Assembly (NCBI GenBank): GCA_031267435.1
Contig: JAIRZB010000019.1
Coordinates: forward strand, 1 to 32,636
Direction of reading: 5' to 3'
Length of the DNA: 32,636 nucleotides
From: Puniceicoccales bacterium
GTDB lineage: Bacteria; Verrucomicrobiota; Verrucomicrobiia; Opitutales; LL51
Below, in pieces: positions 524 to 29,925 of the stretch (its first letter is position 1; each line of letters starts with the position of its first letter). The notes below the pieces were generated by a model. The model was not told where the DNA came from. It saw only the letters and a program-made list of their open reading frames with translations, and searched no databases. The translations under genes were made by a program, and so were the position numbers.

Positions 524-1421
524 CGTGGTCGATCAGTAATCTTACGATTTCAATATTTTCGTGCCTTAGTGCACTATGTATCGCCCACTCTATGTCATCG
601 GACATGTTTGCGTCGGCTCCATGGTCCAGTAAAAATCGTGCGATTTCGAGTCCTTTATTTTCTTCTAACTCAGCGGCAAGACGCAAAAATGAGGATCTGT
701 TGACATATGTTATAGGCTTGTATGGCGAAATTATATCCACATTTCCTTCTTCGACAGCTGATTTTAGTATTTCGAACGCTTCTTCGGGAGTTTTAAATCC
801 ATCTTCGACCGCAGCAATCGCATTCCATATGCGTTGCTCCGGGGAAGGATCCAGAGCCCATGTGGCTTTATTCAATAGAGATTCTTCTTCCGACGTAAGC
901 GGTCTCTCTAGAGGCATTGAGTAAAGGAGGTTTATTTCGCGGAATCTTTCGAAATCGATATCCATCCGATGTAGTTCCTCCAAAGAAAACTTCTCTTTAA
1001 ATTTCTTTGCTATCGGAAATAGCTCACCACGCTGTGCATTATTGAGCCGATTGCGACTCTCTTCATTGCGTAAAGTGGAAAGAGTAAGTACTTCTTGGTC
1101 CGAAGTGGAAGGTTCTTCCTCGGGAATGTTTAATAAAAACGCCTTTAAGATTTCTGTTAAATGGCGCTGACACTTCCCATCGGCAGGACTTTTACCTTCC
1201 GCGAAATCTCTCACCTTTTGACTTAGGGCTGAGTATAGTGGGGCTAGATCCACTGAGAGCGGCAGGACCAGGTCGTTACTATCCTCACCACTATCCAAAT
1301 GTTTTGCTTCCTCCGAATGTTTTTCTTCCTCGCTCGAATGCTCACTTTCGCTGGCGAGAGCCAAGCCCGTGGAGCACAAAACCACCCATCCCATCCTGAT
1401 TAACCATCCTTTCGCATCCAT
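1..1421 (-). CDS. Secreted ankyrin-repeat protein, partial (C-terminus lies beyond the left edge), built from tandem ~265-aa modules
   Basis: Absent from the supplied ORF track because it has no stop in the window. Manual minus-strand translation from ATG 1421-1419 stays open for all 473 codons down to nt 3. The N-terminus MDAKGWLIRMGWVVLCSTGLALASESEH looks like a signal peptide. NKGLEIARFLLDHGADANMSDD...SALRHENIEIVRLLIDHGT (nt ~505-720) matches ankyrin repeat consensus. The + strand ORFs at 37..924 are its shadows. Confidence 0.75.
   Translation of the reverse strand, partial: MDAKGWLIRMGWVVLCSTGLALASESEHSSEEEKHSEEAKHLDSGEDSNDLVLPLSVDLAPLYSALSQKVRDFAEGKSPADGKCQRHLTEILKAFLLNIPEEEPSTSDQEVLTLSTLRNEESRNRLNNAQRGELFPIAKKFKEKFSLEELHRMDIDFERFREINLLYSMPLERPLTSEEESLLNKATWALDPSPEQRIWNAIAAVEDGFKTPEEAFEILKSAVEEGNVDIISPYKPITYVNRSSFLRLAAELEENKGLEIARFLLDHGADANMSDDIEWAIHSALRHENIEIVRLLIDHGTSEEAKYLDSDGDSDVLPPSEDLAPLYSALSQKVRDFAEGKSPADGKYQRHLTESLKAFLLNTSEEVLSTSDQEVPAPSTLHNEESRNRLNNGQCGELFPIAKEFKEKFSSEELHQMDIDFERFREINLLCSLSPGRPHTSEEKSLLVKVISALDPSPEQRIRDAIDAVEDGA
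793..1321 (-). repeat. Copy 2 of the long intragenic tandem repeat
   Basis: Same alignment as above. Differences are mixed substitutions (a/g, c/t and others) plus 6 nt of net indels, and the reading frame is preserved. Confidence 0.85.
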
Positions 1422-1497
1422 ACTAACGAAAGGATGTACGTTGTTAATGTTTTGTCAAGTTATTTCGAGCTATTTATACGTCTCATATTTTCTGTTT

Positions 1498-1917
1498 TCA
1501 TATGTTTTTTATGTTGTTGACCTGCTGTTCCTCATTTTTTGTTGCTTCTGCACAAAACTCCTTGTATTGTCTTCGAATTTTGTTGTGCCTTGCTTTTTCT
1601 TGTTGCTTTCTTTTTTGCTTTGCTTTTTCCTGTGCTTCTTCTCGTTGTTTTTGTTCGTTAACCCATTTTTCTTTTTCTTCATCTGTCATTTTCGCCCACA
1701 TTGCCAATTCTTCGGGAGTCAGGCTCGCCGGCTCATTTCTGCGTTTACGATTTTCCTGTACATTTCTCCCTATCTGAGGAATACGGGAACCTCGCGAATG
1801 CTGCGGACCTTGCGTGGCCTTACGGCAATCGAAGAGAGTGGAGGCGGGTGTTGATGAATGTTGGAAAATTTTTAGAAAATAAAAGTTTTCGAATTCGGAC
1901 ATGCCGTTCGCTCCCAT
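1498..1917 (-). CDS. Hypothetical highly charged K/E/Q-rich protein (139 aa)
   Basis: ORF track entry with ATG at 1917-1915. The C-terminal half, TDEEKEKWVNEQKQREEAQEKAKQKRKQQEKARHNKIRRQYKE, is coiled-coil-like. It sits 76 bp upstream of the ankyrin gene on the same strand. The true start may be an internal Met. I recognise no family. Confidence 0.4.
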   Translation of the reverse strand: MGANGMSEFENFYFLKIFQHSSTPASTLFDCRKATQGPQHSRGSRIPQIGRNVQENRKRRNEPASLTPEELAMWAKMTDEEKEKWVNEQKQREEAQEKAKQKRKQQEKARHNKIRRQYKEFCAEATKNEEQQVNNIKNI

Positions 1918-1972
1918 CCTTTACTTTCAGCATTGGAATCATTTACGAATCTGTCAAACGAATTTATCAATT

Positions 1973-2006
1973 AAAAGTCCTCTGAACTTTATGGCGAGGA
2001 CTTTTT
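1973..2006. other. Perfect 10-bp hairpin (aaaagtcctc / gaggactttt, 13-nt loop) flanked by A-run and T-run; bidirectional terminator-like
   Basis: Read directly from the sequence: aaaagtcctc-tgaactttatggc-gaggactttt-t. It lies in the divergent intergenic region between the 1498..1917 (-) and 2108..4216 (+) genes, so no annotated gene ends there. Confidence 0.35.
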
Positions 2007-2107
2007 GGGGGCCAGTAAAGAAAACATTGGCTTAACAGAAATTTAATGAAAATATATGTTTCAAAAAAAAGAAAAATTGTAATAATAGAGTAATACAGGG
2101 AAAAATT

Positions 2108-4216
2108 ATGGGTGTAGGTTTAGGTTTAGATCCTCATCGAGGCGCTCCCAAAATAGTGGATACGCAAGCTCCCCCATCAACGGACGGAATAGCAGAATCG
2201 AGACAAGGAATAATTAAGCAAGGATCGGTGCATGGATCACGCAATCCATTCAAAAATCTGGCGGCCTCGTTCGTAAAGATGGCGACCTGGTTGAGCGGCA
2301 AACTCAAGGGAAAGGCAATGACAAGCCGAACCAAAGCAAAAACAGAGCCCCAAAGTTTTGACTCTAGTAAAAAGGCAGCGGTTGCAAAGCTCTCAGCCTC
2401 AGCCACAAAGTCTGCATCAATTGCCCCACCGACTCCAAAGCCCGAAGAGCTAAACAAGAGCCATGGTATTGGGCCTACAGCACCTGCAACTGGGGGCACA
2501 GTAATATTAGATGTGGAAAAAATGAGAGACCCAAAACTCATTGCCCAATCGGATGCTATGCGGCCAGAAGCGGACCTTCAGAGTGTTTTTGAAGGTATGG
2601 ACCCGGACAAAGCAAAGGAAGCTGCTGGAGGACTAAAAGACCATCAGGAGTTAGGACTATTGGCCGGCGCCCAAAAGCCCGTCGCAAGCCCCCCAACGGC
2701 AGCTGCAACAGACCCAGCGAAATCGGCAGCGCCAGCAACAACCGCAGCCCCAGCACCAGCTGGAGGCTTGTCAATTGGTCAACGCGCAGAACATTACCAA
2801 AACGAAGCCCGTAAGGCAATAAAAGCTGGAAACCCCGAGTTGGCCCTTGCATGCCTTCAGAAGGCTAACGAAGAATGCAGCACCCCTGATGGTCGAAAAG
2901 CTTACCTGGCCATGAAAAAACCAGCTAGAGTAGCATTTCATGAGGAGCAAGAAAAACTTTATAACGAGCTTGGAAATTCTGAAGCTGTCCAACGGCATCA
3001 AAATCAAGCCACCGATGAACACTTTGGATTTGGCTCAACAGGCAGAGGTTCTTGTCGAGAACGAACCTCTAATGCAATAAATGACGGAAATCTCGACTTG
3101 GCCCTTGAATACCTTCAGGTGCTTGAGGACCAACGACAGCACACCCCCGAAGGTCGGCAAGTCTGGTGGGGAATGTCCAACGAAGCACGCTCGAATTATT
3201 TCGAAGCCATGGCTACGCTATGTGACAAGATTAATAATGAGTCGGGCAAAAAATTGGCGGAAAATATGCGTCAACTGGCCGCTGAGGCATTGAACCCACC
3301 TCCGCCAGCGCCAGCCGCAGCGCCAGCCGCAGCGTTAGCAAGTGCAAGTCTGTCAGAGATGCTAGCAAGTGCTATGAGTGAGCTAGAAAAGGTTGAAAAC
3401 TTTACTAGCTGTACGCCCGAACAACAGGTATATATTAAAGAATATGCACGGCAAATGATCGAAGGTGGTGATAAACCAGAGTTTGCCATAGCCGTATGCA
3501 AAGACATGGCACTTCTCTATCAAGAAGGCATAGATAGGACGATGCCTGATGCCATTAATGTTGCAGGTACAGCTAAAAATGATCAACAAATGAGAACGAA
3601 TGCTGTTGCGCAGTTGCGCGATATCATGAAAGCAAACGGAGGCGATTATGGTACTATTGCGAGTTATTTGCGGGCTCAACAAGAAGGTAGTGATAAGGCG
3701 CTATCTGTTGTGATGCGATATTTTTTAATGCAACAACGTCAAAATCCAGGTGAAGAGCGTTTTCTAGCGATAAATGAAGGGAAAATGAAGGAGGCATTTG
3801 AAGCATTTGAAGGAAATACAGAAGAATATGCTAAAACTGTTGCCATGTATAAAGCATTTACTGCTATTGCTCTAAATAAAGTTGGTTTTGAAGGTCGTAA
3901 TCCTCAAAATCACACATGTACTGTTTATCGTGGGATGTCGACTGAAGCCTTGAATGCAGCATATCCGGGTTATGATCAGAAACGAGACGGGGATACTTTT
4001 ACGATCAAGCACAATCCACTGGAATCGACATCTATTGGAGGTCCGATTGACACTTTTAATGGTCCGGGAAAGGATACACATACGACGGAAGTTCCTTTCA
4101 GTAGAGTTCTTGTAGCTTATTTTATGTCGCCGGAAATGTGTGCTTCTTTTTGTGCCACAGAACATGAATTTATTTGTGATTTAGTTGGTATTCCTGCCAA
4201 GATTAAACATAATTAA
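2108..4216 (+). CDS. Modular 702-aa protein: disordered Ser/Thr/Pro/Ala-rich N-terminus, two ~75-aa helical repeats, Pro/Ala linkers, and a C-terminal R-S-E type mono-ADP-ribosyltransferase-like domain
   Basis: ORF track entry. The C-terminus carries TVYRG (R608, nt 3929-3931), LESTSIG (S640-T-S642, nt 4025-4033) and ATEHEFI (E685-x-E687, nt 4160-4168). Spacings are 32 and 45 aa, consistent with the R / STS / ExE triad of C3/Vip2/ExoS-type ARTs. There is no signal peptide. Internal repeat: AIKAGNPELALACLQ..TPDGRK versus AINDGNLDLALEYLQ..TPEGRQ. Confidence 0.6.
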   Translation: MGVGLGLDPHRGAPKIVDTQAPPSTDGIAESRQGIIKQGSVHGSRNPFKNLAASFVKMATWLSGKLKGKAMTSRTKAKTEPQSFDSSKKAAVAKLSASATKSASIAPPTPKPEELNKSHGIGPTAPATGGTVILDVEKMRDPKLIAQSDAMRPEADLQSVFEGMDPDKAKEAAGGLKDHQELGLLAGAQKPVASPPTAAATDPAKSAAPATTAAPAPAGGLSIGQRAEHYQNEARKAIKAGNPELALACLQKANEECSTPDGRKAYLAMKKPARVAFHEEQEKLYNELGNSEAVQRHQNQATDEHFGFGSTGRGSCRERTSNAINDGNLDLALEYLQVLEDQRQHTPEGRQVWWGMSNEARSNYFEAMATLCDKINNESGKKLAENMRQLAAEALNPPPPAPAAAPAAALASASLSEMLASAMSELEKVENFTSCTPEQQVYIKEYARQMIEGGDKPEFAIAVCKDMALLYQEGIDRTMPDAINVAGTAKNDQQMRTNAVAQLRDIMKANGGDYGTIASYLRAQQEGSDKALSVVMRYFLMQQRQNPGEERFLAINEGKMKEAFEAFEGNTEEYAKTVAMYKAFTAIALNKVGFEGRNPQNHTCTVYRGMSTEALNAAYPGYDQKRDGDTFTIKHNPLESTSIGGPIDTFNGPGKDTHTTEVPFSRVLVAYFMSPEMCASFCATEHEFICDLVGIPAKIKHN

Positions 4217-4232
4217 ACATAATATTTGACTT

Positions 4233-4607
4233 ATGTTCAATATGGTTACCTTGAATAAAATCATGGGTGACGTAGGAGAGATTGATAATAATTATGTGAA
4301 AGAATCACCGATTGAAATCGTAGAGATTTTGCCGATGGGTATGGTCGAAATGAAAATTGGTCGTAAATTAGCAAGAATTTGTGAACCGAAACCACAGTTT
4401 CTCCAAAAAGGAGTTGTTTTTTTAGTGACTCCTGACGTTGGGAGTTGTGATTGGGAGAATTTGATTTCATGCGATCTTCCTGAAAGGAATGGGTTAAAAG
4501 GGTTTACAGATGATCCTCGCTTGGTAGATATAGGGAAACAAGTGTTTACTGGTGAATCATTAAAATTAAAACCAGGGACAATTATTCCTCCCTTAAAAAA
4601 GGAATAG
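4233..4607 (+). CDS. Hypothetical 124-aa protein directly downstream of the ART-like gene (possible immunity, chaperone or partner)
   Basis: ORF track entry on the same strand, 16 bp after the ART-like stop. No recognisable motif, no signal peptide, roughly neutral to slightly acidic. Start is ambiguous, with several Met codons among the first 11 codons. Confidence 0.45.
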   Translation: MFNMVTLNKIMGDVGEIDNNYVKESPIEIVEILPMGMVEMKIGRKLARICEPKPQFLQKGVVFLVTPDVGSCDWENLISCDLPERNGLKGFTDDPRLVDIGKQVFTGESLKLKPGTIIPPLKKE

Positions 4608-4637
4608 GCGTTAGTTGGGATATGTTTAGGAGGTATT

Positions 4638-4750
4638 CTGTTGATCATAGGTAAGGGGAGATTTCGTTCCCATTCCGAACACGATCGTTAAGCCCTAAAT
4701 CGCCGATGGTAGTGCCGCCACGATAGGATGCGAGAGTAGGTCGTTGCCAG
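4638..4750 (+). rRNA. rrf: 5S rRNA-like gene, orphan (no 23S/16S in window), possibly degenerate
   Basis: The stretch cccattccgaacacgatcgttaagccc...cgccgatggtagtg...gcgagagtaggtcgttgccag matches the conserved 5S loop C, loop E and 3' segments (compare E. coli CCCAUGCCGAAC...CGCCGAUGGUAGUG...GCGAGAGUAGG). By hand, the helix IV segment ccgccacgatagg is not self-complementary, and helices I and II have mismatches. Ends are approximate, within about 5 nt. Confidence 0.65.
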
Positions 4751-4759
4751 TATTCCAGT

Positions 4760-4915
4760 CAGGTGCTGCGCGCCGAGCTGAAAAAAAGTCAAGGAAGCTG
4801 CGACTCCTTGCGGGGGGCACGGGGCAGAAAATAAAAGCTACACGCCCTTAAGAATCCGGTCCCGGGTTCTCGCCCGAGATTGCGGGGAGCCGCAGGGCTG
4901 CACCCATGGTGGCTT
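4760..4915. repeat. GC-rich mosaic hairpin element (locus 1 of a family)
   Basis: The core gtcaaggaagctgcgactccttgcggggggcacggggc (4788-4825) is near-identical to 32408-32443. In addition, cgcccttaagaatcc (4843-4857) resembles cgcccttaggaatcc (32218-32232), and gctgcgcgcc is shared. It fills the gap between the 5S-like gene and the glgP stop. Confidence 0.6.
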
Positions 4916-4919
4916 CATA

Positions 4920-7481
4920 CTATTCCCCAACGCTAGTACTTTTTAATCTCCAGATGTCTTTGGCATACTCTTTAATGGTTCTATCGCTGGAAAATTTTCC
5001 CAGGAGGGCCGTATTTAAAATGGCCATTTTCGCCCATTGGGTTCGGTTCTTGTAGGCATCGTTGATGCGGCTGTGCGCCTTGCAATAGGCGCGAAAATCC
5101 GCTAAAACGCAGAAAGGATCATCGATAATAAGACTTTCTGCGATTTCTTTCATCGGGTTTTCGCCATTCGGTGTAGCAAAGAAATCAGAACGCATCCAAT
5201 CGAGGATCGCTTTCAATTCCTCGTCATTGTTGTAATAGTTTTGTGGGCTGTATCCGTTATTTTTCAGAGCGGCGATTTCCTGTTCCGTATTACCAAAGAT
5301 GAAAATATTTTCATTGCCCACTTCCTCTAAAATTTCCACATTCGCACCGTCGAGTGTGCCGATTGTGCATGCGCCATTCAAGGCAAGTTTCATGTTTCCC
5401 GTTCCGGAAGCTTCCTTGCCGGCTGTGGATATTTGTTCCGACAGGTCCGCTGCGGGGATGATCTTTTCGGCAACCGTTACGCAGTAGTTGGGAATAAAAA
5501 CGACCTTAATCTTGCCATTGATTTCCTGATTATTATTGATAAAATCAGCCGCAAGATTGATGGCGTGGATAATTCTTTTTGCCATAACGTATCCCGGCGC
5601 TGCCTTGGCACTAAAGATAAAGACACGCGGATGAACGGAGTCATCATTGGGGTTTCTAGCCACGCGGCGAAACAGTGCGAGAATGTGTAAAAGATTGAGG
5701 TGCTGTCGCTTGTATTCGTGTAGGCGTTTGATTTGGACGTCAAAAAGCGCGTCGGGATTGATCTCGATATTCAATTTTTGTAGGATATATTCCGCCAGCG
5801 CAGTCTTATTGGCATGCTTAATCGCCATGAATTGTTCTTGAAATATTTTATCATTTGCAAATTTTGTGAGCTCTCTGAGTCGATCTAGATCGGTTATCCA
5901 ATCCGGACCAATCTTCGAGTCAATGAGTTTGGAAAGTTTGGGGTTGCAGAGTTTTAGCCAGCGGCGCGGCGTAATACCATTGGTTTTATTGTTAAATAAT
6001 TTGGGATAAAGTTCGTGGAAGCTCGGGAAAAGCTGCGATTTAAGTAATTCCGAGTGCATTCGTGCAACGCCGTTTACCGAATGGCTTCCTACGACCGCCA
6101 GATGGGCCATGCGAATGACGGGATGTTCGCCTTCCGTAATGATCGATAATTCCCGTTTTTTTTCATCATCATTGGGCCATTTTTGCGCCACATCTTCGTC
6201 GAGAAAACGGCGATTGATTTCGCAAATGATCTGGTAATGCCGAGGTAAAACTTTCTGGAAAAGTTCCACACTCCACGTTTCGAGTGCTTCCGGTAAAAGC
6301 GTATGATTGGTGTATGCGAAAATTTCTTTGCAAATGCTCCAGGCTTGTGGCCAGGGCATTTTTTCTTCATCGATAAGGACACGCATCATTTCGACGATTG
6401 CGATGGTTGGATGGGTATCGTTGAGTTGTAGCGCTACCGTTGCTGTTAGGTTTGACCAGCCGTCATTGAGATTTTTATAGCGCCGAAGAATGTCTTTTAT
6501 CGAGCAGGCTACAAAGAAGTATTGCTGCATCAGGCGAAGCTCTTTCCCCTGGGCAGTGGCGTCGTTGGGGTAAAGAATTTTCGAAATGGTTTCCGTTTCA
6601 ACCTTATCGCGGACCGCCTGGATATAATCGCCACGATTGAAGTTTTCCAGGTTGAATTCTTCCGTTGCGTGGGCTTCCCATAGGCGTAAAAAATTGACGG
6701 TTTCGGCGCCGTAGCCCACGATGGGGATGTCCCAGGGAATTCCAATGATATCCTGGGTATTTTCCCAGATAGGAACCCAGTCGCCTTGCTCATTGTAATG
6801 GCTTTTAACATTGCCATATAATTTGATGCGTTGGGCATTTTCGGGGCGGGCAATTTGCCACGGACTTCTTCCCGCGGTCATCCAATTGTCGGGATGCTCT
6901 ACCTGTTTGCCATTGGTAATTTCCTGTCGAAATAACCCAAATTCGTAGTGAATGCCATAGCCTATGGCAGGGTAATTGAGTGTGGCGAGGGAGTCGAGAA
7001 AGCAGGACGCGAGGCGACCGAGTCCGCCATTACCGAGTGCGGGATCCTGTCCTTCGTCAAAGGTAAGATCCAGGTCTTGACCTAGTTCTTTGAGTGCTTC
7101 GCGCATTTCCTCGAAAATTCCTGAGTTGTACAAGTTATTTTTCAGCAAGCGCCCAGGAAGATACTCGAGCGACAGGTAGTACAGTCGGCGAATATTCGAT
7201 TCGTGTTGAGCCCGCTGTGTTTTAATATAGCGGTTAAGAATTTTATCGCGGATGGTATAGCAAGTCGCGAGCCACCATTCATATGGCGATGCCGAAGTTT
7301 GTTCTCGAGCGAGTCGGCATTCCAGATGGTGTAGGATGGTCTCTTTCAATTCTTTAGCCGTTGCTTTTATAAAAGAATCCGATGCCCGTGTGTCTTTGGA
7401 TGTATCCGTACAGCACCCACAGCTGCCGTCCGATCGATTTGCTTTTTTTGTACTATCGCTACAGGATTTAACTTGTTCCAT
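4920..7481 (-). CDS. glgP: Glycogen/maltodextrin phosphorylase
   Basis: 853-aa ORF. It carries the GT35 PLP-lysine signature [14 protein letters not shown] plus family-typical segments ([31 protein letters not shown]). Confidence 0.95.
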
Positions 7482-7570
7482 AAATATCCCCTAGTAACTA
7501 TTATTTAATTTTTTCTTTTTGCCAATAAAAATATTACATTTAGATTTGTGGAAAAAACGAAAATGTTACG

Positions 7571-8149
7571 ATGATGTTTTGGCGGAAGTATATGGCGAGG
7601 TGTATTCTATTGGTTTTAGTTTTATTGGGTTTAGTGCGGACATACGGAGCGAGAGATCATCGCCGGACGTGTTCATCTACCGTTGCAGGATCCATGGAAA
7701 ATAAGATCCAGCCGATCAAGGATGTCGTTATCACCACTAAAAAAAATCGCGATTTTGAGTATTTGTCGACGATTTGGCGCTCATTCGGCGGAGGTCCCTA
7801 TCAGCTCAATTGTATCGGAGACCATCGAGAACAGCGCTATGTTCTGGGGAGGGATTCGGGGCAAGACTTTGCCGGAACTTATATTATAGTCGTGCTCCAT
7901 GACTCGCTAGAAAAAATCGCGGAGCATGGGAAATTAATGGTATGGTATGTGGTGCTCGGTGAGTTGGACCCCCGGTGTCTGACTTATTTTTTGCCGAAAA
8001 AAAATGTGGCCGACGATCGGGAAATTTTTCTTCGTTTAGATGCCTCATGCCAATTTGTAGAGAAAATTGTTGCCTGGAAAGTCGTCATTCAATCCGGCGA
8101 AAAGGAATATGCACAGTCAAGTTTACTTTGGAATAAACTGGTTCAATAG
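7571..8149 (+). CDS. Hypothetical secreted protein (192 aa)
   Basis: ORF track entry. The N-terminus MARCILLVLVLLGLVRTYGA|RD looks like a Sec signal peptide. I recognise no family. Confidence 0.55.
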   Translation: MMFWRKYMARCILLVLVLLGLVRTYGARDHRRTCSSTVAGSMENKIQPIKDVVITTKKNRDFEYLSTIWRSFGGGPYQLNCIGDHREQRYVLGRDSGQDFAGTYIIVVLHDSLEKIAEHGKLMVWYVVLGELDPRCLTYFLPKKNVADDREIFLRLDASCQFVEKIVAWKVVIQSGEKEYAQSSLLWNKLVQ

Positions 8150-9151: not shown

Positions 9152-9622
9152 TTAGATACAAATATCTTTTTTTAGTGTGTCGTCGAAATTTTGTATCCGA
9201 TCAAAAAGCATGGGGTCGTTATTTTCTTCTTTAATTTCAATAAAATCCTTGTCTTCTTGGTCTCCTCGGAAATCTATGTAATAGGCATGTGCCTTAATTG
9301 TTTCCAAGCTCTCTGATAGAAGATTGTGTAGTTGTGAAGATTTTTCTTGCGGCGAAATATCGCAATCAATAAAAATAGCTTTTTCTTCCCTAAAAAGTTT
9401 GCACTGTTCGGTTATTATTTTTGCCATTTCTTCAATGTTCATATTGCAAAGTGGAAAAATGCTTTTAAACTGGCAAGATTCTGGCAGAAGGTTTGTCTCT
9501 TTTTCGCTTTCATTGCAAATAACAAAAACAACTTCAAAGACGAAGTTGGCACTCATTTCTCGATTACTATCACGGGCGATGGAAGCTTCTGTAACTAAAA
9601 AGTACGTCATCTCATCCTTCAT
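9152..9622 (-). CDS. Hypothetical acidic cytoplasmic protein (156 aa)
   Basis: ORF track entry only. No motif recognised. It is convergent with the Nudix gene. Confidence 0.45.
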   Translation of the reverse strand: MKDEMTYFLVTEASIARDSNREMSANFVFEVVFVICNESEKETNLLPESCQFKSIFPLCNMNIEEMAKIITEQCKLFREEKAIFIDCDISPQEKSSQLHNLLSESLETIKAHAYYIDFRGDQEDKDFIEIKEENNDPMLFDRIQNFDDTLKKDICI

Positions 9623-9747
9623 ATGCTTTATAACTTTATGTTTTTATATGATATGTACAGATAAAAGTGTTGGTTGCGGGACTTTTCGTAAAAACGGTTT
9701 ATTTTTTGCTGGTATTGTTGTTTTTAGAAAGTTTGACTATATTTTCC

Positions 9748-9776
9748 TTGACAGGTAGATTCAATTCAAATAGAGT
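9748..9776 (+). promoter_or_regulatory. Sigma70-like promoter candidate for the first OMP gene
   Basis: TTGACA (9748-9753), a 17-nt spacer, then TAGAGT (9771-9776), located ~70 nt upstream of ATG 9849. Confidence 0.4.
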
Positions 9777-9848
9777 ATAAACAGTATCGGAGTCGTTGCG
9801 CCCAGGCGAGAGTGGGAGCACTGTTCTTTGGTTGAAAAGGAATACAAG

Positions 9849-10877
9849 ATGAAAAAGTTATTAACAATTACAAGTAGTTTGTTGGTTGCAGGGAGAATGT
9901 TCGCTGAATTCTCAACGCATGCGCTGACAGTTGATTCTAAGATTGAATTTAATACGGCTCGCGTAAGCGAGGGACGTCGACTGGGGGATCATAATTTTGC
10001 GCCCAGTGTTGAAGTAGGGGTTCCTGCGTTAGGTGTTGGTGAATTTTATGTTGGCATCGATGGTTATTTGATTTTTGATCAGCAAAAAACCGCAAGGGAG
10101 CTGTCTCATAGTAAGACAGATGCTAAGGGACGGGATGAAGTTGCTCCCTATGTTGGCTTTTCCTATGATGTAAGTGATATGTTTACCATTGATCTCGGGT
10201 ATACCTATCACCACTATAGCGATAAAGATGCCTGGATTACGGAAGTCGCTGGTCGGCCATTTAAGTTGTTCGACGGGGATGGTAAAATTAAGGTTCCGGC
10301 CGGTGAGGATGAGGATGCGAAAAGTATGTCGGTGGAAGAATTTAATGGGGGTGAGAAGAAGGATGAACTATGGGGGCAATCGGGTGATAATCTTGGGGCT
10401 AAGCGTAGGGGGCATGAGATTTTTGTTGGAGGAATGATCGATGTGCTATTAAGCCCTGCGGTTTATTTTGCCTATGATTTTAGTCAGAAGAAAGCTAATA
10501 TCGAGGGGACACTCAGTTATACCCTTGATTTAGGGTCCGTTGGTGCTAATGGTTTTGCGATTGATTTAGGCTCAAAGGTTGGTTATAGTCGCGTTAATAA
10601 GCCCTACGGAATCAGTCGCACCACCCAAGTTGCTTTTGCGAGGTATGATAATGATGGTAATATCGCTGGGGTGCAGTCTGGTGGTTTGTTTGATAAGAAA
10701 GGTTGGGGGTACATTGGCGCTAATGCCGATTTGGTATATGCTTTGAATGAGCATACGAAGGCGCGTGCCGGTGTTGGTCTTTCTTTGAATAATGCTGGGA
10801 AAAATTCATGGATAAACGATTTTAATTTTAAAAAACATAATGTTTGGTTTTCGTCCGCCGTGGAGTTTTCCTTTTAG
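9849..10877 (+). CDS. Outer-membrane beta-barrel (porin-like) protein, paralog 1
   Basis: The ORF track starts at TTG 9828. ATG 9849 follows aaggaa and yields MKKLLTITSSLLVAGRMFA (signal peptide). The body shows alternating beta-strand patterning and the C-terminus is ...VWFSSAVEFSF (terminal Phe OMP signature). The family name is unknown to me and it could be TorF/Gcw_chp-like. Confidence 0.75.
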   Translation: MKKLLTITSSLLVAGRMFAEFSTHALTVDSKIEFNTARVSEGRRLGDHNFAPSVEVGVPALGVGEFYVGIDGYLIFDQQKTARELSHSKTDAKGRDEVAPYVGFSYDVSDMFTIDLGYTYHHYSDKDAWITEVAGRPFKLFDGDGKIKVPAGEDEDAKSMSVEEFNGGEKKDELWGQSGDNLGAKRRGHEIFVGGMIDVLLSPAVYFAYDFSQKKANIEGTLSYTLDLGSVGANGFAIDLGSKVGYSRVNKPYGISRTTQVAFARYDNDGNIAGVQSGGLFDKKGWGYIGANADLVYALNEHTKARAGVGLSLNNAGKNSWINDFNFKKHNVWFSSAVEFSF

Positions 10878-10924
10878 GAGCGTGTGCGAGTTGGGTGATG
10901 CTTGGGGAGGGCGTTTGGTTTGAT

Positions 10925-10946
10925 GAGGGCAGATTGCCCTCTTTTT
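10925..10946 (+). terminator. Rho-independent terminator after OMP paralog 1
   Basis: gagggca-gat-tgccctc forms a 7-bp stem followed by tttttgtattttt. Confidence 0.7.
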
Positions 10947-11022
10947 GTATTTTTGTGTTATATTTTCTTGACGAGCGGTGGTCTGTGTTTATGGCTGTCA
11001 TATTTGTAAAGTGATGTGCAAG

Positions 11023-12003
11023 ATGAAAAATTTATTAATCGTTGTTGGTGGTATATTGGTTTCGGGATATGTCTGCGGTGGATTCCAGATGCCTACTTTA
11101 AGTGTGGATTCTAAGATTGAATTTAATACGGCTTCAATCAGTCGTGGGCGTTATTCGATGGGGAAGAATGTGGTGCCTAATCTGATTGTTGGTATTCCTG
11201 TTTCCGATTCCAGTAAGCTATCGCTTGGCGTTGAGGGGACTTTTAAGACGGATAGCGCAGCCCCCGGCGGCAATGATGTTTTATTTTTAATTGAGTTTCG
11301 CCATGATCTAACGGATTTATTTGCCATTACTTTTGGTTATAGCTATGATTACGGTGTCGAAAAGAATTGTAGTGTTCCTTCGGTCAATAACAGAGCGTTT
11401 GCTCTCGTCAATGGTGATGGGAATTTCATTCTGGACTCCAACGGTAACGATGCGGGTGGCCATGATGATGCTACGTTTCTTGCGAAGGATGAGGATGCCG
11501 TGCGTAAAAGTGTTCAGGCAAAGCGTTTTTATCATGAAGTTTCCGTGGGGTTGAGTGCTAATGTGCTATTGCATCCCGGAGTGTATTGTAAGTATGATTT
11601 CACTCAGGGCAGGGTAAATCTGGGTAGTCGTATCGGACATACTATTAATTTACATGGATTGGAGGCATCCGGTCTTTCTATCAGATTAGGTGCCGAGTTA
11701 GGATATGTTCATGTTAAGAAGCCTAACGGTATCGCCGGTACGACGCCTGTTATTTTTGAGACTCTGGGTGCGGATGGGGCACACAATGGTGTCGAAGATT
11801 ATATCAGTAACTTGTACGGTAGGGAAAATTGGACCTATGTCGGCAGTAATGCGGATTTGGTTTACTTTTTTAATGAGCACGCGAAGGCTCGCGTTGGCGC
11901 TGCGGTTATTTGTAATAGTGCGGCAAATAATTCTTGGGTTAATGCGAATAACGGGAAAAAACATAAGGTATGGTTTTCGTCGGCCGTAGAATTTGCATTC
12001 TAA
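11023..12003 (+). CDS. Outer-membrane beta-barrel (porin-like) protein, paralog 2
   Basis: The ORF track starts at GTG 10978. ATG 11023 gives MKNLLIVVGGILVSGYV (signal peptide). It shares LxVDSKIEFNTA near the N-terminus and KKHxVWFSSAVEFxF at the C-terminus with paralog 1. Confidence 0.75.
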   Translation: MKNLLIVVGGILVSGYVCGGFQMPTLSVDSKIEFNTASISRGRYSMGKNVVPNLIVGIPVSDSSKLSLGVEGTFKTDSAAPGGNDVLFLIEFRHDLTDLFAITFGYSYDYGVEKNCSVPSVNNRAFALVNGDGNFILDSNGNDAGGHDDATFLAKDEDAVRKSVQAKRFYHEVSVGLSANVLLHPGVYCKYDFTQGRVNLGSRIGHTINLHGLEASGLSIRLGAELGYVHVKKPNGIAGTTPVIFETLGADGAHNGVEDYISNLYGRENWTYVGSNADLVYFFNEHAKARVGAAVICNSAANNSWVNANNGKKHKVWFSSAVEFAF

Positions 12004-17748: not shown

Positions 17749-18291
17749 TTGGAGAGTGGAGTGCTTCTGGCGCATTTTTGTAGTGCCTATGAGTATTGGG
17801 GGATTTTAATGGAGCCTGTATTGGGGCTTTTTTTTGAGTTTTTGTGTATTATTTGCGGTTATTTGCTTGCATTTTATTTGTATTTTTCAAACTGGGTTCC
17901 GTATCCGGTTGCAATGATAGCGAATAATTACATTGAATTTTGTACCCGATTTTATGAAAATCTATATCGGCGACGGTGTACCGATTTGTCAATCATTCAG
18001 ATCTTGAGTAATCTTTATGCGTCTCAGGGCGATAAGGAAGGTAGTTTTAAGATGGATCGTCGCCATGTACAGTTAGATCCGCTGAATCCAATTGCCCATT
18101 ACAATCTGGCCTGTGGTCTATCGCTACACGGTAAAACAAACGCAGCAATTGAATCTTTGGAAACGGCGGTCGTATTGGGATACAACGATTTACAATGGAT
18201 TTGTGACGACGTTGATTTGGATCCTATTCGGAAAAATGAAAAATTTAAGGCGCTTTTAGTAAATCATTTTTCGAGAATTTCATCAAAATAG
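17749..18291 (+). CDS. Hypothetical membrane-anchored protein with a TPR-like C-terminal region
   Basis: It has a hydrophobic segment (LGLFFEFLCIICGYLLAFYLYF) followed by HYNLACGLSLHGKTNAAIESLETAVVLGYND...LDPIRKNEKFKALL, which is TPR-like. The start is uncertain: TTG 17749 or ATG 17809. Confidence 0.5.
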   Translation: MESGVLLAHFCSAYEYWGILMEPVLGLFFEFLCIICGYLLAFYLYFSNWVPYPVAMIANNYIEFCTRFYENLYRRRCTDLSIIQILSNLYASQGDKEGSFKMDRRHVQLDPLNPIAHYNLACGLSLHGKTNAAIESLETAVVLGYNDLQWICDDVDLDPIRKNEKFKALLVNHFSRISSK

Positions 18292-19617: not shown

Positions 19618-20583
19618 TCAATTTGCCGGGATATGCTCTTCGATAATCGCAATTACCTGTTCCAATGTATTTCCCGATGTATCGATGATAATCGCATGGG
19701 GATCGAAATAATAATGATCCATGGCGTCACGTTGTTCCACTTCATCTTTTTCTCCTTCGCTAGCTCGACGATGGGCACGAATTCGAGAGTCGGCTGTCAG
19801 AAAAAATTTTGCACTTGCTTTCGGCATAATAATGGAACAAATATCCCGGCCTTCCATCACGATGCCCGTGAAATTCATTTTTTTTGCTAATTCAACAAGA
19901 CTTTGCTGATAGGTTTTCAGTTTCTGTCGCAATTCCGGGATGCGTGCAAAGGAAGCTACTTTTTGGTTGAGCTCCTCCGAATGCAGTTCCGTGTGGTGAA
20001 GAATTTTGCCATTGATGGACAAATGTTCCGCAGTGCCATCTAATTGTGTTGCTAGGACAAGGCTGGTTAGTTCTTCTGGAATGCGTGGGTCGGCTGCCGT
20101 TGGAATGTTTTTTTGTAAAAAATAAAATGTCAGTGAACGGTAATGATCACCGGTATTGACATTTAGTAGGTAATGTTTTTTTGCCAGAGCACGTGCCGTC
20201 GATGATTTTCCTGACGCCGCCGTACCGTCGATTGCTATGGACAAAAAAAGCTTCGAAGAATCGGCGCACATATGCAGAAATTGGTTTCTAAGTAACCAAA
20301 AATTGGGAAGAATTCCCTTTCGCGCAATGACTAAGTAATCATTTTGGGGATTCAAACGGGATTGTTCCCCATGAAATATTTCCCGGAAAATACGTTTAAC
20401 GCGATTGCGTTCGTGGGCTTTTCCCACTTTTTTTCCCGTAATAATAGCGAACCGCGGCAGTGTATTCGATTTGTTTTTTTTTATTTTCACAAAAAAATCA
20501 CGCACATTGCGATGAATACTGTTCGTTCGAAACTGTTCAAAATCAGCTTGTTTTTTTATTCGCTGACATTTTTGAAGGCGCAT
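19618..20583 (-). CDS. rnpA/cmk: Single ORF fusing RNase P protein component (aa ~1-110) to cytidylate kinase (aa ~113-321)
   Basis: The N-terminal part has GKKVGKAHERNRVKRIFRE (RnpA RNR motif) and lies 2 nt downstream of rpmH. The C-terminal part has IAIDGTAASGKSS (P-loop), MEGRDI and ADSRIRAHRR, which are Cmk hallmarks. No stop separates the two. An internal in-frame ATG (M105) is at 20271-20269. Confidence 0.85.
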   Translation of the reverse strand: MRLQKCQRIKKQADFEQFRTNSIHRNVRDFFVKIKKNKSNTLPRFAIITGKKVGKAHERNRVKRIFREIFHGEQSRLNPQNDYLVIARKGILPNFWLLRNQFLHMCADSSKLFLSIAIDGTAASGKSSTARALAKKHYLLNVNTGDHYRSLTFYFLQKNIPTAADPRIPEELTSLVLATQLDGTAEHLSINGKILHHTELHSEELNQKVASFARIPELRQKLKTYQQSLVELAKKMNFTGIVMEGRDICSIIMPKASAKFFLTADSRIRAHRRASEGEKDEVEQRDAMDHYYFDPHAIIIDTSGNTLEQVIAIIEEHIPAN

Positions 20584-21434: not shown

Positions 21435-22220
21435 CTAGGTGGTCCGTTTTTTTAAGGATCCCCAATCGATTAGCTTGGGAGTAAAGGAGGAATCGTTTGG
21501 GATAACCATTATGTTTTTTGGATTAGAGTCGGTATTCGTGTAGCTGCAGCCGTGTAGCATCATTGGAGTTTTGGCTAGTTGTAGCGATAAATTGAAAGCA
21601 ACGATTTCGACCGTTTCGCTGATTATGGTTCCGGGATGCAATTTGTTCTGATGCTGAGCTTGGGCAATACCAATAATGGGAACAATATTACTTAATCCGG
21701 CGAGTTGGCTTCGAATATGTTGGGTTCGTGATTTTTTCTCCTCGGAAAGGGCGTCGTCGTTTTCGATTGCCGCCGGTTTCCGTAATTTTTGTTTTACGCC
21801 ATCCATAAAAAGGTGAAAATATTGTTGGTCGTTTTGTTCAGTGTTGTCTTTTGAGCGCTTCAGCACAATTTCGCCGTCGCCGATTCGTCCCATAGTGACA
21901 TGGGTCCTATTATCGAGCACTTTGTGAGCGGTAACGATTTCGGTTCCATTTGGGGAATCGCATGGGGTTAGGGATGTTCCTATAAAATTATGGAATTCTT
22001 CTAGGCATGTCGGCAAAAAATCATAGGTCTTTTGGTGGGCTAATTGCTTTGGCAAAAGTCCCCAGCTCCTTGCCATCGGAGGCTTTGGGAAATCATTAAT
22101 CTTCTTCTGTGGCCCGATGGTAAGCCTTATCGGCTGTTGGCTAGGTTTCTGGGGATGCGAAGCCTTTGTGCTAACCTTTTGGAGGATCATTGTCAATCGC
22201 GTCGGTTTAGATTTTTCCAC
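21435..22220 (-). CDS. Minimal eukaryotic-like kinase fold protein, ending 9 aa after the DFG-like Asp (effector-like; possibly interrupted)
   Basis: Catalytic-loop-like TNTDSNPKNIMV (D231..N236, an HxDxxxxN-type loop). Mg-loop-like KLIDWGS (D252). SNIVPIIG resembles the HPNIVxLxG segment. The N-terminal ~50 aa are disordered and there is no signal peptide. After the TAG at 21437-21435 the same frame stays open to 21240. Confidence 0.55.
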   Translation of the reverse strand: MEKSKPTRLTMILQKVSTKASHPQKPSQQPIRLTIGPQKKINDFPKPPMARSWGLLPKQLAHQKTYDFLPTCLEEFHNFIGTSLTPCDSPNGTEIVTAHKVLDNRTHVTMGRIGDGEIVLKRSKDNTEQNDQQYFHLFMDGVKQKLRKPAAIENDDALSEEKKSRTQHIRSQLAGLSNIVPIIGIAQAQHQNKLHPGTIISETVEIVAFNLSLQLAKTPMMLHGCSYTNTDSNPKNIMVIPNDSSFTPKLIDWGSLKKRTT

Positions 22221-27241: not shown

Positions 27242-27322
27242 GTGCTCTGTGAAGAGTTTAATTCATAATTGACGTTTTGCGCGAAACTTTTAGTTTTACA
27301 ATCAAGAGAGTTGAAATTGGGG

Positions 27323-29050
27323 ATGGCGAGGGATCGGAGTAAAATGGTATTATGTGTGGCGGACGCTGGCGTATGTCTTTGCAAGGTTACCGATCAGAAA
27401 GGTCGCGCATTTATTCTTTCAAGCCAGATTGTTCCGGCGGAACATTTTGCGACAAGCAAGAAAGATTGGTTGCGGGCAGCATTGAAAAATTTTAAACCTA
27501 AGCTGCTCGGGCAAGTGACGGATATTCTTATTTCAACGACGTTGATCCACTATATTCCCTTTGAAGTTTTTTATCTGCGCGAGGAAAATTTTAACCGAGC
27601 TATGCTATTGGAACTGAAAAATTTGCTTGGTGATAAAATTTCGCAATTTAAGTTCGGGATCTATCGGACCGAGGGAAATAATATTGCCCACATATTTGGG
27701 GCTCAACAATCGATGATTACGAGCTTAAACACGGTATTGGAATCCGTGGGCATTAAAAAAGCGAAGATTTTACTTTCTCCGGTTATGTTTATCGAGGAAG
27801 GTAGGCGGCAGATCGTAAATGCGGATGTTGTTTTCCTCTATATCGGTCGCAATCTCATTTCTTTTGTTTTGCGCAAAGGGAGCGAAAGCGTTTCCCATTT
27901 GATGCCCATACAATTGGGGGCGCTGGCTAAAAAAATGTCGCAAATTATGAATCGAAATTGTTCCGAGGAGAATGTGTATCAATTCATCAAGAATTCCCAG
28001 GAACAGAAATTGGATCAGGCTATCCAGTATGTATTGGATGAATTTTTCGAGGAGCTTCGTTTGGCTATTATCCAAGTTGTGGAGCGGTATTTTGGCGAAG
28101 GAGAGCGTATCACATGGGTTGTTGGTGGCTGCTATGACCAACTGTATGGCATTCGCCAGCGGCTCGAAAACAAAATGGAACGAAAAATTATTCCATACCA
28201 TGTCGCATTTAAACAACAAATTTCACCGTCCATCGAAACAGATACCGCTGCGATAATAGAACCTTTCGTTCCCGGTTTGCTCGCAACGGCTACGCTCGAT
28301 AAAAAACAACTCACGAAAATCGTTAATTTGCAAACGGATGCACTTGTTACCAAATTAAAAAAGGAAAAACCATTTTTTTATCAAAATTTCGTTGCAGGTT
28401 CAGTTTGTGTTGCGTCGGTATTGCTATATTTTTCCCAGCACCTCAATTGCCAATACATTGCCAGCGAGACCCAAAATAAGAAATTGCTTACAGAACAGAG
28501 CGAAATGGTACGCATCACTAAGCAAATCGAAGATATCAATAGTCATATCAGGGAGCAAAAAAAAATGTTGGGTGATGTTTTAGTATACATCGAACAAAGT
28601 CGAAAATGGTGCGAATTGTTCAATGCTCTGCAAAAAATTTTAGCCGAAGCGGAAAACGTTTATCTGACCTCGTTCATATGGAATATGCAAATGAATAAAG
28701 CGAAGGAAGGAGAAGTGCGTAAGGCGAAGGAAGGGAATTCATCCGCTAAAAAAACTCAGAAAACTCCCCCTAAAAAAGAGGTGGATGAGACTGATGAGAC
28801 TACGCCTAAACTCCCTAAGGTAACTTCGTCGATCGCTATGATGGGGAGCATGTTCATTGGCAATGTGACGATTACTAAGGATGTGGAACAGGAATTTAAT
28901 GCCAAATTCAATGAAATGTTTGACAAAATTCGCAAGCTATTGCTTTGTGCCGAGCTCGGCGATATAAAAGTAAATGTTCCTGAGAATGGTAAAATCACCT
29001 TTCGGTGTACCATGGAAGTCAATGCGAAATCGAAAATTATGGCGCTATGA
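27323..29050 (+). CDS. PilM-like actin-fold ATPase fused to a PilN-like TM plus coiled-coil plus C-terminal domain
   Basis: The N-terminal ~340 aa show PilM/FtsA-like patterning (VLCVADAGVCLCKV; VVFLYIGRNLISFVL; IQLGA..; ITWVVGGCYDQLYGIRQRLE). These are followed by a TM segment (FVAGSVCVASVLLYF), a coiled coil and a K/E-rich linker. The start is ATG 27323 or 27344; the ORF track uses TTG 27269. Confidence 0.65.
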   Translation: MARDRSKMVLCVADAGVCLCKVTDQKGRAFILSSQIVPAEHFATSKKDWLRAALKNFKPKLLGQVTDILISTTLIHYIPFEVFYLREENFNRAMLLELKNLLGDKISQFKFGIYRTEGNNIAHIFGAQQSMITSLNTVLESVGIKKAKILLSPVMFIEEGRRQIVNADVVFLYIGRNLISFVLRKGSESVSHLMPIQLGALAKKMSQIMNRNCSEENVYQFIKNSQEQKLDQAIQYVLDEFFEELRLAIIQVVERYFGEGERITWVVGGCYDQLYGIRQRLENKMERKIIPYHVAFKQQISPSIETDTAAIIEPFVPGLLATATLDKKQLTKIVNLQTDALVTKLKKEKPFFYQNFVAGSVCVASVLLYFSQHLNCQYIASETQNKKLLTEQSEMVRITKQIEDINSHIREQKKMLGDVLVYIEQSRKWCELFNALQKILAEAENVYLTSFIWNMQMNKAKEGEVRKAKEGNSSAKKTQKTPPKKEVDETDETTPKLPKVTSSIAMMGSMFIGNVTITKDVEQEFNAKFNEMFDKIRKLLLCAELGDIKVNVPENGKITFRCTMEVNAKSKIMAL

Positions 29051-29925
29051 AAAAAATACTTTACAGAAGTTTGCAGGTATGTTTTCCGATTGCACTATTA
29101 CTGGTGATTTTTTTTCTAGGCCATTGGTGTTGGAATCGGTATGCCTGTATCGTCACGATGAATGACAGCGATGTTAAAGCAAGGGAAGAAATCCAAAAAT
29201 TGTCCAAGGGAAAACCTTTCCCCTCGGAGGAAAATTTACAGAAAGTTATTCAAAAATCAAAGAATTACGATATCGATTATCAACTTTATACCGCAGCGCG
29301 TCAGCAGTTTGATTTGGAATTCTTAAAGTCAAAGAGACCTAGAAATGAAGTGGATTTTTATTTCTTATTGATGGCTTATATTAATTTCTTGACGAATTAT
29401 GCCAAAGAATCGGCCGTTACTGTTCCTGCTAATACGGCATTTGGCTTCGAGCCCTATTCGCAAAAAGATGTGATTCCGATGCAGGCCCATATCGATGAAC
29501 TCTATAAGCAGAGTAAGATTATTGTGAAATTATTGCTTTTGCTTTTTGATTCCAATGTCTATGGCATGGATTTGCTTAGCCTATCCCGTGAGAGTGTCGA
29601 CGGCAATAGCGGTAATCAAAAATCCGGTGATAGTGTGGGCACTTTGGATCGAAATAAAGTAGCTCTTAATCGTAAGGATACTGTAAAGTCTTATTTCTTT
29701 AGCATCGAATTTTCCTGCCATACTAATGCTCTCCGGAATTACATCAATAAATTACAGGAGTATGGTTTGCCTGTAATTGTGCGTTCATTGGCAATCAATA
29801 GCGAAAGTAAAAATTCCTCGGGGGATGTAATTTCGCTGACGGAAAAAGTTAAAGTTTCGATGGTATTGGAGTGGTTGTTTATTCGAGACGAAAAGAATGC
29901 TTTAAAGTCGGAAGATAAAGAATGA
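29047..29925 (+). CDS. Membrane-anchored PilO-position protein; resembles, from memory, the Akkermansia Amuc_1100 family
   Basis: It has an ATGA overlap with the upstream gene and an N-terminal TM segment (VCFPIALLLVIFFLGHW). The segments AFGFEPYS... and ALRNYINKLQEYGLPVIVRSLAINSE recall Amuc_1100 (LGFQVYS..., ...FTVNSIRIRNE) as I remember that sequence. This is unverified. Confidence 0.55.
   Translation: MKKILYRSLQVCFPIALLLVIFFLGHWCWNRYACIVTMNDSDVKAREEIQKLSKGKPFPSEENLQKVIQKSKNYDIDYQLYTAARQQFDLEFLKSKRPRNEVDFYFLLMAYINFLTNYAKESAVTVPANTAFGFEPYSQKDVIPMQAHIDELYKQSKIIVKLLLLLFDSNVYGMDLLSLSRESVDGNSGNQKSGDSVGTLDRNKVALNRKDTVKSYFFSIEFSCHTNALRNYINKLQEYGLPVIVRSLAINSESKNSSGDVISLTEKVKVSMVLEWLFIRDEKNALKSEDKE

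Follow-up and report, generated by a model that had tools for sequence, protein, structure and literature searches.

The locus analysed here raises the question of what two adjacent genes, whose family is labelled 'hypothetical' in every source, do for the bacterium that carries them. The two genes lie on a stretch of 32,636 nucleotides from the genome of a Puniceicoccales bacterium (contig JAIRZB010000019.1; hereafter the window). The first is a plus-strand open reading frame (ORF) of 702 amino acids (aa; positions 2108–4216; P0001, with an identical gene call on record), and the second is a small ORF directly downstream of it. A preliminary description of the locus had regarded the large product as a modular protein ending in ADP-ribosyltransferase (ART) motifs, and the small one as a candidate immunity protein or chaperone. 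In our analysis, the pair is best described as a member of an uncatalogued family within a known kind of system, namely an ART of the R-S-E type encoded with an adjacent cognate neutraliser. The 702-aa protein is probably a modular effector or toxin with a C-terminal R-S-E mono-ART core, its small neighbour being an inhibitor of the immunity type.

The segment used as a query for homologues was aa 420–702, as the full-length protein returned only itself, low-complexity words saturating the prefilter. With this segment, the indexed database gave 16 relatives, and an exhaustive HMMER search gave 105 representatives. The hidden Markov model (HMM) of the family splits into two units, a ~45-aa helical module and a ~223-aa core. 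The core occupies aa 480–702 in the window protein (3545–4213), where a predicted helical N-terminal lobe precedes a six-stranded beta core, and it is the part held in common with the phage proteins described below. The ART motifs had previously been assigned to the last ~100 aa; the triad does lie there, but the conserved unit is the entire ~223-aa core together with the 45-aa module. The remainder of the protein, in which nothing had been recognised before, matches no curated library, but aa 420–600 turned out to be conserved module and core and not filler.

Three motifs, VYRG with R608 (region 1; codon at 3929–3931), ESTSIG with S640-T641-S642 (region 2; 4025–4033) and TEHEF with E685-H-E687 (region 3, [E/Q]-x-E; 4160–4168), were found once each and exactly where they had been placed, and the spacings of 32 and 45 aa were reproduced on recomputation. 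We aligned 42 trimmed cores sharing less than 55 % pairwise identity (alignment A2; mean column identity 26 %). R608, S640 and E687 were the sole invariant columns among these diverse cores, and we regard the motif set as significant for this reason. The same sites were assessed in all representatives covering them. R608 is retained in 85 of 89 and S640 in 86 of 89, T641 is T in 64 of 89, and S642 is S in 60 and A in 23 of 89. Position 687 is E in 83 of 85. Of the same 85, 59 have E at position 685, 15 have Q and 5 have G, so that E or Q stands there in 74. The homologues thus keep the R/STS/ExE set, as the preliminary description had anticipated. Alternation of E and Q at the first position of the third motif is the specificity switch of R-S-E ARTs, E-x-E going with arginine and Q-x-E with asparagine as the acceptor.

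The predicted structure is consistent with these assignments. AlphaFold2 modelled aa 420–702 (a 283-aa model) with a predicted local distance difference test score (pLDDT) of 89.2 and a predicted template modelling score (pTM) of 0.91, and the core alone (aa 480–702) with a pLDDT of 83.2 and a pTM of 0.79. In the predicted core, a helical lobe is followed by six strands. R608 is located on strand 1 (predicted strand 184–192 of the 283-aa model), the STS motif on predicted strand 2 with a short helix after it, and E687 opens strand 5 past a loop. A split-sheet ART core has been described (PMC9503650), and the strand order and triad placement in our models match it. When the models were compared with the PDB by Foldseek, ExoS ranked first for the 283-aa model with a non-significant score, and the catalytic domains of PARP10/14/15 or tankyrase accounted for 30 of the 50 top matches of the core alone. 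Chains of CNFy and IcmQ, proteins reported to have ART-like domains, were also among the top 50 for the core alone. A Foldseek search of BFVD gave no significant match. ART folds thus lead the ranking, but the scores are non-significant. Since no Foldseek match is significant, the models strongly suggest an ART fold, short of statistical proof. Taking conservation and models together, we consider it very likely that aa 480–702 is an NAD-using enzyme of the ART fold.

The second gene was originally seen as a 124-aa ORF starting 16 bp downstream. An ORF of that length does start at ATG 4233, 16 nt past the stop of the 702-aa ORF (4233–4607, plus strand), but translation more probably starts at ATG 4263, because the gene call on record (P0113) and the starts of the homologues agree on it. 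The product from this start would be 114 aa long, with a mass of ~12.7 kDa and an isoelectric point (pI) of ~5.1. One half of the partner is conserved and carries the motif TDDPRLV...PGTIIPPL. Searches of Pfam, NCBIfam, PADLOC and the PDB gave no match for the partner, and no DNA-binding or hydrolase domain was found in it. Its homologues (48–62 % identical) lie directly 3' of an ART-family gene, on the same strand, in six of the first seven genomic loci. With a profile search, 33 partner proteins were recovered. They all derive from metagenome-assembled genomes (MAGs) and metagenomes of the sort that carry the ART family, many of them from contigs that also hold an ART gene.

The association was surveyed by an HMM scan of all six-frame ORFs in 12 symbiont loci plus the window, which yielded 14 partner genes. 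Directly before every full-length partner, the most divergent ones included, stands an ART-family gene or what remains of one, and wherever the 3' flank of a symbiont locus is intact, the partner adjoins the ART gene. One locus (L008) holds two tandem ART–partner pairs, and the partner also follows an ankyrin–ART fusion (L013) and a SidE-PDE–ART fusion (L015). Only in L003 does a partial partner-like ORF (4461–4784) depart from this order; it lies upstream of the ART gene and is probably part of an adjacent pair. Several ART copies, in L004, L005, L007 and L010/L011, have been frameshifted or truncated. In L010/L011, all that is left of the core is its last ~50 aa, beside an intact partner gene, as would be typical, by analogy, of orphan immunity genes. 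The divergences of core and partner are correlated (r = 0.63; 0 of 2000 Mantel permutations reach this value, 25 non-identical pairs), the coefficient being 0.88 within symbiont pairs. Adjacency and correlated divergence both show that the small ORF is conserved and co-inherited with the large gene; the absence of such a link had been named beforehand as a ground for rejecting the proposal.

Phage genomes provided a second setting for the pair. The weakest HMMER matches were long proteins with an N-terminal Phage_Mu_F or Portal_Mu domain and an ART-like core at the C-terminus, and the genes for these fusions are located among Mor, gp27, terminase and portal genes, that is, in head-morphogenesis clusters. 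IMG/VR, scanned with the phage-type cores only, gave 26 further viral loci. In 20 of the 30 phage-type loci, the fusion gene is adjoined at its 3' end by a gene for a partner homologue, on the same strand in 16 and convergently in 4, and no copy was found at any other place in these loci. The phage-type partners are homologous to the symbiont-type ones by hhalign (97.5 %, E 8e-12, 88 columns). In phages, the partner evolves faster than the core (27 % versus 37 % mean identity). The most distant relatives of the family align only from about query residue 60–75 on, i.e., with essentially the core alone. We also considered that the partner binds the 45-aa module or is a secretion chaperone, and set this aside as the leading idea because the partner also stands beside phage fusions that match only downstream of the module. 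The window protein itself has no MuF or portal domain, a feature met in distant relatives only. A MuF–ART locus with no detectable partner (L018) carries a gene for a patatin-like phospholipase (7138–8061) just downstream of the head genes.

These observations bear on what the partner does, for which an immunity protein and a chaperone had both been put forward. The same ART-fold enzyme could be accompanied by a dedicated secretion chaperone or export adaptor resembling the class I chaperones of type III secretion, such as that of ExoS. The partner is small, mildly acidic and encoded directly downstream, and the symbiont proteins are effector-like in their ankyrin and SidE-PDE fusions and, in the window, in a disordered N-terminus, all of which would suit a chaperone. 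We nevertheless regard a chaperone as unlikely. The partner follows the core whatever the N-terminus, phage portal and MuF fusions included, whereas in a pair of type III effector and class I chaperone the partner would be tied to the secretion-targeting N-terminus and to a type III secretion system. Capsid-packaged fusions need no bacterial secretion chaperone. The intact partner persists beside the ART remnants of L010/L011, as orphan immunity genes do, and neither the window nor the loci examined showed any secretion-system genes. Because the partner tracks the core across unrelated N-termini and across capsid-protein fusions that need no secretion chaperone, the comparison of these loci favours an immunity-type inhibitor, and the chaperone, the other half of the original proposal, is disfavoured.

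The phage setting also bears on the reaction that the core may catalyse. ARTs are frequent as cargo of MuF and portal proteins and are packaged in the head, and the expected role of such head-packaged ARTs is to reprogramme the host, not to kill it (PMC9503650). This expectation speaks against the core being an ART-fold NAD+ (or NADP+) glycohydrolase, or some other NAD-consuming toxin that depletes the cofactor. Such an enzyme would be generally toxic, which would suit a producer cell that requires an inhibitor, and transfer and hydrolysis are not distinguished by the present data. Moreover, NAD(P)+ glycohydrolases occur among the ART-fold toxins that have immunity proteins, e.g., the Tne5 family (PMC13285283). 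The family described here combines R, S-T-S and [E/Q]-x-E with alternation of E and Q. It is established that this combination is the signature of an acceptor-specific transferase, and a glycohydrolase seems to us a doubtful alternative to the mono-ART that we prefer.

The organisms in which the family occurs, and the domains to which the core is fused, give some indication of where the symbiont proteins act. NusA of the window clusters at ≥90 % identity with its counterpart in a Puniceicoccales MAG. The MAGs that supplied the relatives are from Puniceicoccales and Holosporaceae and are named Gsp477, Ncb351, Pcl387 and Cc175, of which at least Gsp477 and Ncb351 are metagenomes from lower-termite guts (PMC11707648). 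The Verrucomicrobia of termite guts include intranuclear symbionts of gut flagellates (PMC8204192), and the Holosporales are obligate associates of protists (PMC11909080); from this we infer that the MAGs may represent such symbionts. The core is fused to ankyrin repeats in three relatives (P0020, P0023 and P0027) and to HD/SidE-PDE and PI-kinase-like regions in two (P0050 and P0096). One of the latter, P0096 (L015, 2991–7103; 1370 aa), from a termite-type metagenome, combines a SidE_PDE/HD-like region, a PI3/PI4-kinase-like region and the ART core, is followed by the partner, and in its architecture resembles Legionella-style effectors. No Rhs, PAAR, LXG or type VI secretion trafficking domain was found in any member scanned. 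The ankyrin and SidE-PDE fusions, together with the ankyrin-like tandem repeats encoded upstream of the ART gene in the window, suggest that the symbiont proteins are eukaryote-directed effectors.

Other relatives illustrate the variety of the family. P0013, a 446-aa protein from a Puniceicoccales MAG that bears the NCBI name 'nucleoporin', starts with NPF/GQSPF repeats of an FG-like kind, which are followed by three 45-aa modules and a truncated core; these repeats would be intriguing if the host bacteria are intranuclear symbionts. A Holosporaceae MAG encodes P0007 (L002, 4868–6307), which is full-length and well conserved elsewhere but has lost the triad (R to H, STS to PTP, ExE to QEA), and is thus either a pseudo-enzyme or a decaying copy. 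The same locus carries a second ART copy with a partner at 657–3018.

Several results weigh against our interpretation of the pair and are gathered here. A relaxed R...S-T-S...E-x-E expression also matches the low-complexity N-terminus of the 702-aa protein; the loose pattern by itself is not beyond chance, and for this reason the case for an ART rests on conservation and structure. The residue two before the STS serine is aliphatic (L/I/V), an aromatic residue at this position being typical of the CT/C3 group. No ART family in Pfam (such as ADPrib_exo_Tox or ART-PolyVal), NCBIfam or PHROGs was matched by the window protein or by sets of 17 or 42 relatives (E ≤ 1–10), and PADLOC held no match for the family. 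Profile searches (hmmsearch with A1 and A2) and phmmer against PDB sequences gave chance matches only. In hhalign, the family profile scored no higher against T4 ModA, ModB and Alt, or against a three-sequence profile, than against control proteins. Foldseek found no significant match in the PDB (best E 0.34–0.55, TM 0.2–0.29), and most of its matches were PARPs of the H-Y-E clade and not R-S-E toxins. A partner was not detectable in 10 of the 30 phage loci, which may use a different neutraliser. Neither secretion-system nor phage genes were seen near the pair in the 32.6-kb window, and binding and inhibition of the core by the partner are what we propose.

On these grounds one might hold that the domain lies outside the ARTs altogether, and that its R, S and E serve some other active site, or a binding surface, on a superficially similar fold. 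No ART was matched significantly in sequence or in structure, the TM-scores are in the random range and the loose motif occurs by chance elsewhere in the same protein, all of which would agree with this. We think it improbable, however, since the invariant residues are those of the ART triad, in the right order, at the right spacing and on the right secondary-structure elements. In addition, the Foldseek ranking is overwhelmingly of the ART fold and includes several unrelated ART families, and MuF or portal cargo and an adjacent small neutraliser-like gene are both documented settings of ART toxins.

How, then, does the putative ART relate to known ones? Pfam, NCBIfam and PDB-sequence searches with both window proteins gave nothing meaningful, and no match to the cores turned up when 50,697 phage and 72,556 plasmid records were searched by tblastn. 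The family appears to be described by no curated library and is accordingly filed under no existing family. It resembles C3, Vip2-iota, ExoS-ExoT, SpvB and HopU1 in its triad, in the order and spacing of the motifs, in the helical lobe on the N-terminal side of the core and in E/Q alternation. It differs from C3, Vip2-iota, ExoS, SpvB and HopU1 in the aliphatic residue before STS, the dedicated conserved partner and the repeatable 45-aa module. In contrast to these bacterial toxins (Pfam ADPrib_exo_Tox and relatives), the 42 members match no Pfam or NCBIfam ART model even at E ≤ 10. The earlier comparison with C3, Vip2 and ExoS thus holds for triad, order and spacing, but the family is an uncatalogued one and not a divergent homologue of these toxins. 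The motif style recalls T4 Alt (LYRS...FVSTSL...NEMEV) and ModB (LYRG...REQEW), and a local hhalign alignment with ModB pairs YRG with YRG and STS with TTS at an overall score of the control level; there is no significant hhalign similarity to Alt, ModA or ModB. T4 Alt is packaged in the head and injected, and the phage branch of the family appears to use the same strategy, although we know of no dedicated inhibitor partner for T4 Alt.

A close functional parallel is Bxa, an experimentally characterised MuF polymorphic toxin of a Bacteroides stercoris prophage, which acts on both eukaryotic host and bacterial proteins and is neutralised through binding by Bsi, a small, adjacent, non-enzymatic protein (PMC11699363). 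Because Bxa hits proteins of both kinds, a host-directed ART can still need immunity. The Bxa-Bsi/BAH system and the family share a C-terminal ART on a modular protein, and relatives of the core are likewise fused to MuF in head clusters; more generally, the window pair shares with MuF/portal polymorphic toxins of the Bxa/Apk2 type a C-terminal toxin followed by a small conserved ORF. Unlike Bxa, the window protein lacks a MuF domain and is encoded outside any prophage, and no ADP-ribosylhydrolase (BAH-like) gene lies alongside the pair. The catalytic Glu of Bxa (E820 of 869) is ~50 residues from the C-terminus, as compared with 15 in the window protein. Membership in the Bxa family is thus not supported by domain geometry.

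In Tre1-Tri1, an interbacterial ART pair, the toxin gene is followed by the gene for its cognate neutraliser. The family shares this order with Tre1-Tri1, together with multi-copy, orphan and decaying cassettes, but differs in having eukaryote-interaction fusions and, among the members scanned, no trafficking domains. The two-gene layout of toxin and neutraliser, the multi-copy occurrence with decaying copies and the phage connection could also be taken as marks of a chromosomal toxin–antitoxin or abortive-infection module that acts in its producer, like DarT-DarG or ParT-ParS. This we consider very improbable. PADLOC gave no matches, and the long, variable, eukaryote-style N-terminal regions and repeat arrays are atypical of such toxins. 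The core in phages is cargo of structural proteins and not a defence gene. In place of a compact toxin, the window encodes one with a 480-aa N-terminal extension, and the partner has no macro, hydrolase or DNA-binding domain. The effector or toxin with its immunity-type inhibitor remains our preferred description of the pair.

The part of the 702-aa protein that precedes the core is a series of dissimilar segments. The first 215 residues (2108–2752) form a basic, low-complexity region rich in A, P, K, S and T (pI 9–10 in composition analysis) that is unique to the window protein among the relatives fetched. No 19-residue window anywhere in the 702-aa protein is hydrophobic enough for a Sec signal or a transmembrane helix (maximum Kyte-Doolittle mean 1.12), which agrees with the earlier account of an S/T/P/K-rich N-terminus lacking a Sec signal. 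This region is followed by two helical repeats at aa 237–299 (2816–3004) and aa 323–386 (3074–3265), which align with each other at a score of 76 versus 25.6 ± 4.9 for shuffled sequences (z = 10) and are mirrored in a direct DNA repeat (D3; 2812–2860 and 3070–3118). The repeats had been noticed before and are real, but they are ~64 and not ~75 aa long. A Pro/Ala-rich linker, which had also been noted, is present at aa 391–419 (3278–3364; 41 % Ala, 21 % Pro).

The linker leads to the 45-aa module (aa 431–474; 3398–3529), which is delimited by the HMM domain table of the family and alignment A1 and is predicted to form two helices. Its consensus reads CTPEQQxYIxxYAxQMIEGGDKPEFA. The module is single in the window protein and occurs as tandem arrays of 2–18 copies in relatives, seven preceding the core in P0018 (L008, 2738–4918). 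P0048 (1112 aa) has 18 copies and no detected ART core. Judged from this distribution, the module appears to be an independent repeat domain.

The possibility that the pair resides in a prophage or a secretion island was ruled out for the window, where the neighbours are housekeeping genes; type III secretion genes in particular were not seen in the window. Upstream, a minus-strand ORF (3–1454) runs off the start of the window and contains a ~792-bp tandem direct repeat (positions 1–300 and 793–1092 are 86 % identical), which corresponds to protein repeats of ~264 aa with an ankyrin-like motif, 'LDHGADANMSDD...LLIDHG'. It may encode another host-directed effector, divergent from the ART gene. 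Between the two lies a Lys/Glu-rich ORF of 139 aa (1498–1917, minus strand). On the other side, 30 nt past the stop of the partner gene, a 5S rRNA gene is found on the plus strand (4637–4752; Rfam, 56.4 bits). Because the 32.6-kb window contains neither a 23S nor a 16S gene, this 5S gene is unlinked from an rRNA operon. Farther away, a 321-aa ORF (19618–20583, minus strand) joins a Ribonuclease_P domain (aa 3–92) to a cytidylate kinase (aa 116–318), and is either an unusual RnpA-Cmk fusion or the result of a missed stop or start. Nine ORFs of the window, 150–593 aa long, have no Pfam match (7571–8149, 9152–12003, 17749–18291, 21435–22220 and 27269–30764, the last being a run of three overlapping or adjacent ORFs).

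Putting these results together, we envisage the following mechanism. The C-terminal ~223 aa would be an NAD+-using mono-ART of the R-S-E type. If its residues act as their counterparts in characterised R-S-E enzymes do, NAD+ would be held by R608 together with the S640-T-S642 turn, the catalytic glutamate would be E687, and E685 in the E-x-E motif would predict arginine as the acceptor. The small protein would bind the catalytic core and keep the enzyme inactive inside the producer. The two genes constitute a module that we take to be old. Phages of the Mu and SPP1 types carry the core as a fusion to a MuF or portal head protein, so that it is probably packaged and injected, and a partner gene stands next to it in most of the loci. 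In the Puniceicoccales and Holosporaceae of lower-termite guts, the module is chromosomal, multi-copy and partly decaying. There the core is fitted with variable N-termini, namely disordered/helical-repeat, ankyrin, SidE-PDE/HD or FG-like ones, a pattern suggesting that the proteins are exported to a eukaryotic (protist) host and act on it. Of this scheme, the analysis shows the conservation, the make-up of the module, the joint inheritance of its two genes and the tie to phages, whereas the enzymatic activity, the inhibition by the partner, the export and the target belong to the model that we propose.

It is attractive to speculate, though only tentatively, that the ART family and its inhibitor began as cargo of phage portal and MuF proteins, and were captured and amplified by termite-protist endosymbionts of two unrelated phyla (Puniceicoccales and Holosporaceae), which rebuilt them through fusions to ankyrin, SidE-PDE/PI-kinase-like, FG-repeat and 45-aa modules. 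If this is the case, the inhibitor may have been retained because the enzyme also hits bacterial targets. If, in addition, these Puniceicoccales are members of the intranuclear 'Nucleococcus cluster', the family could comprise ADP-ribosylating effectors directed to the nucleus or the nuclear pore.

The advance made here is incremental rather than conceptual, as R-S-E ARTs with a neutraliser and MuF polymorphic toxins are already established. If the activity is confirmed, the family would add to the ART superfamily a family-level branch missed by current profile libraries, and its partners would constitute a new family of small cognate inhibitors. The variation between E and Q and the varied N-terminal fusions would then offer handles on target choice. 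Almost nothing is known about host manipulation by the protist endosymbionts of termite guts, and the pair may be an example of a toxin/immunity module from phage head cargo that was domesticated as a multi-copy effector family in these uncultivated bacteria.

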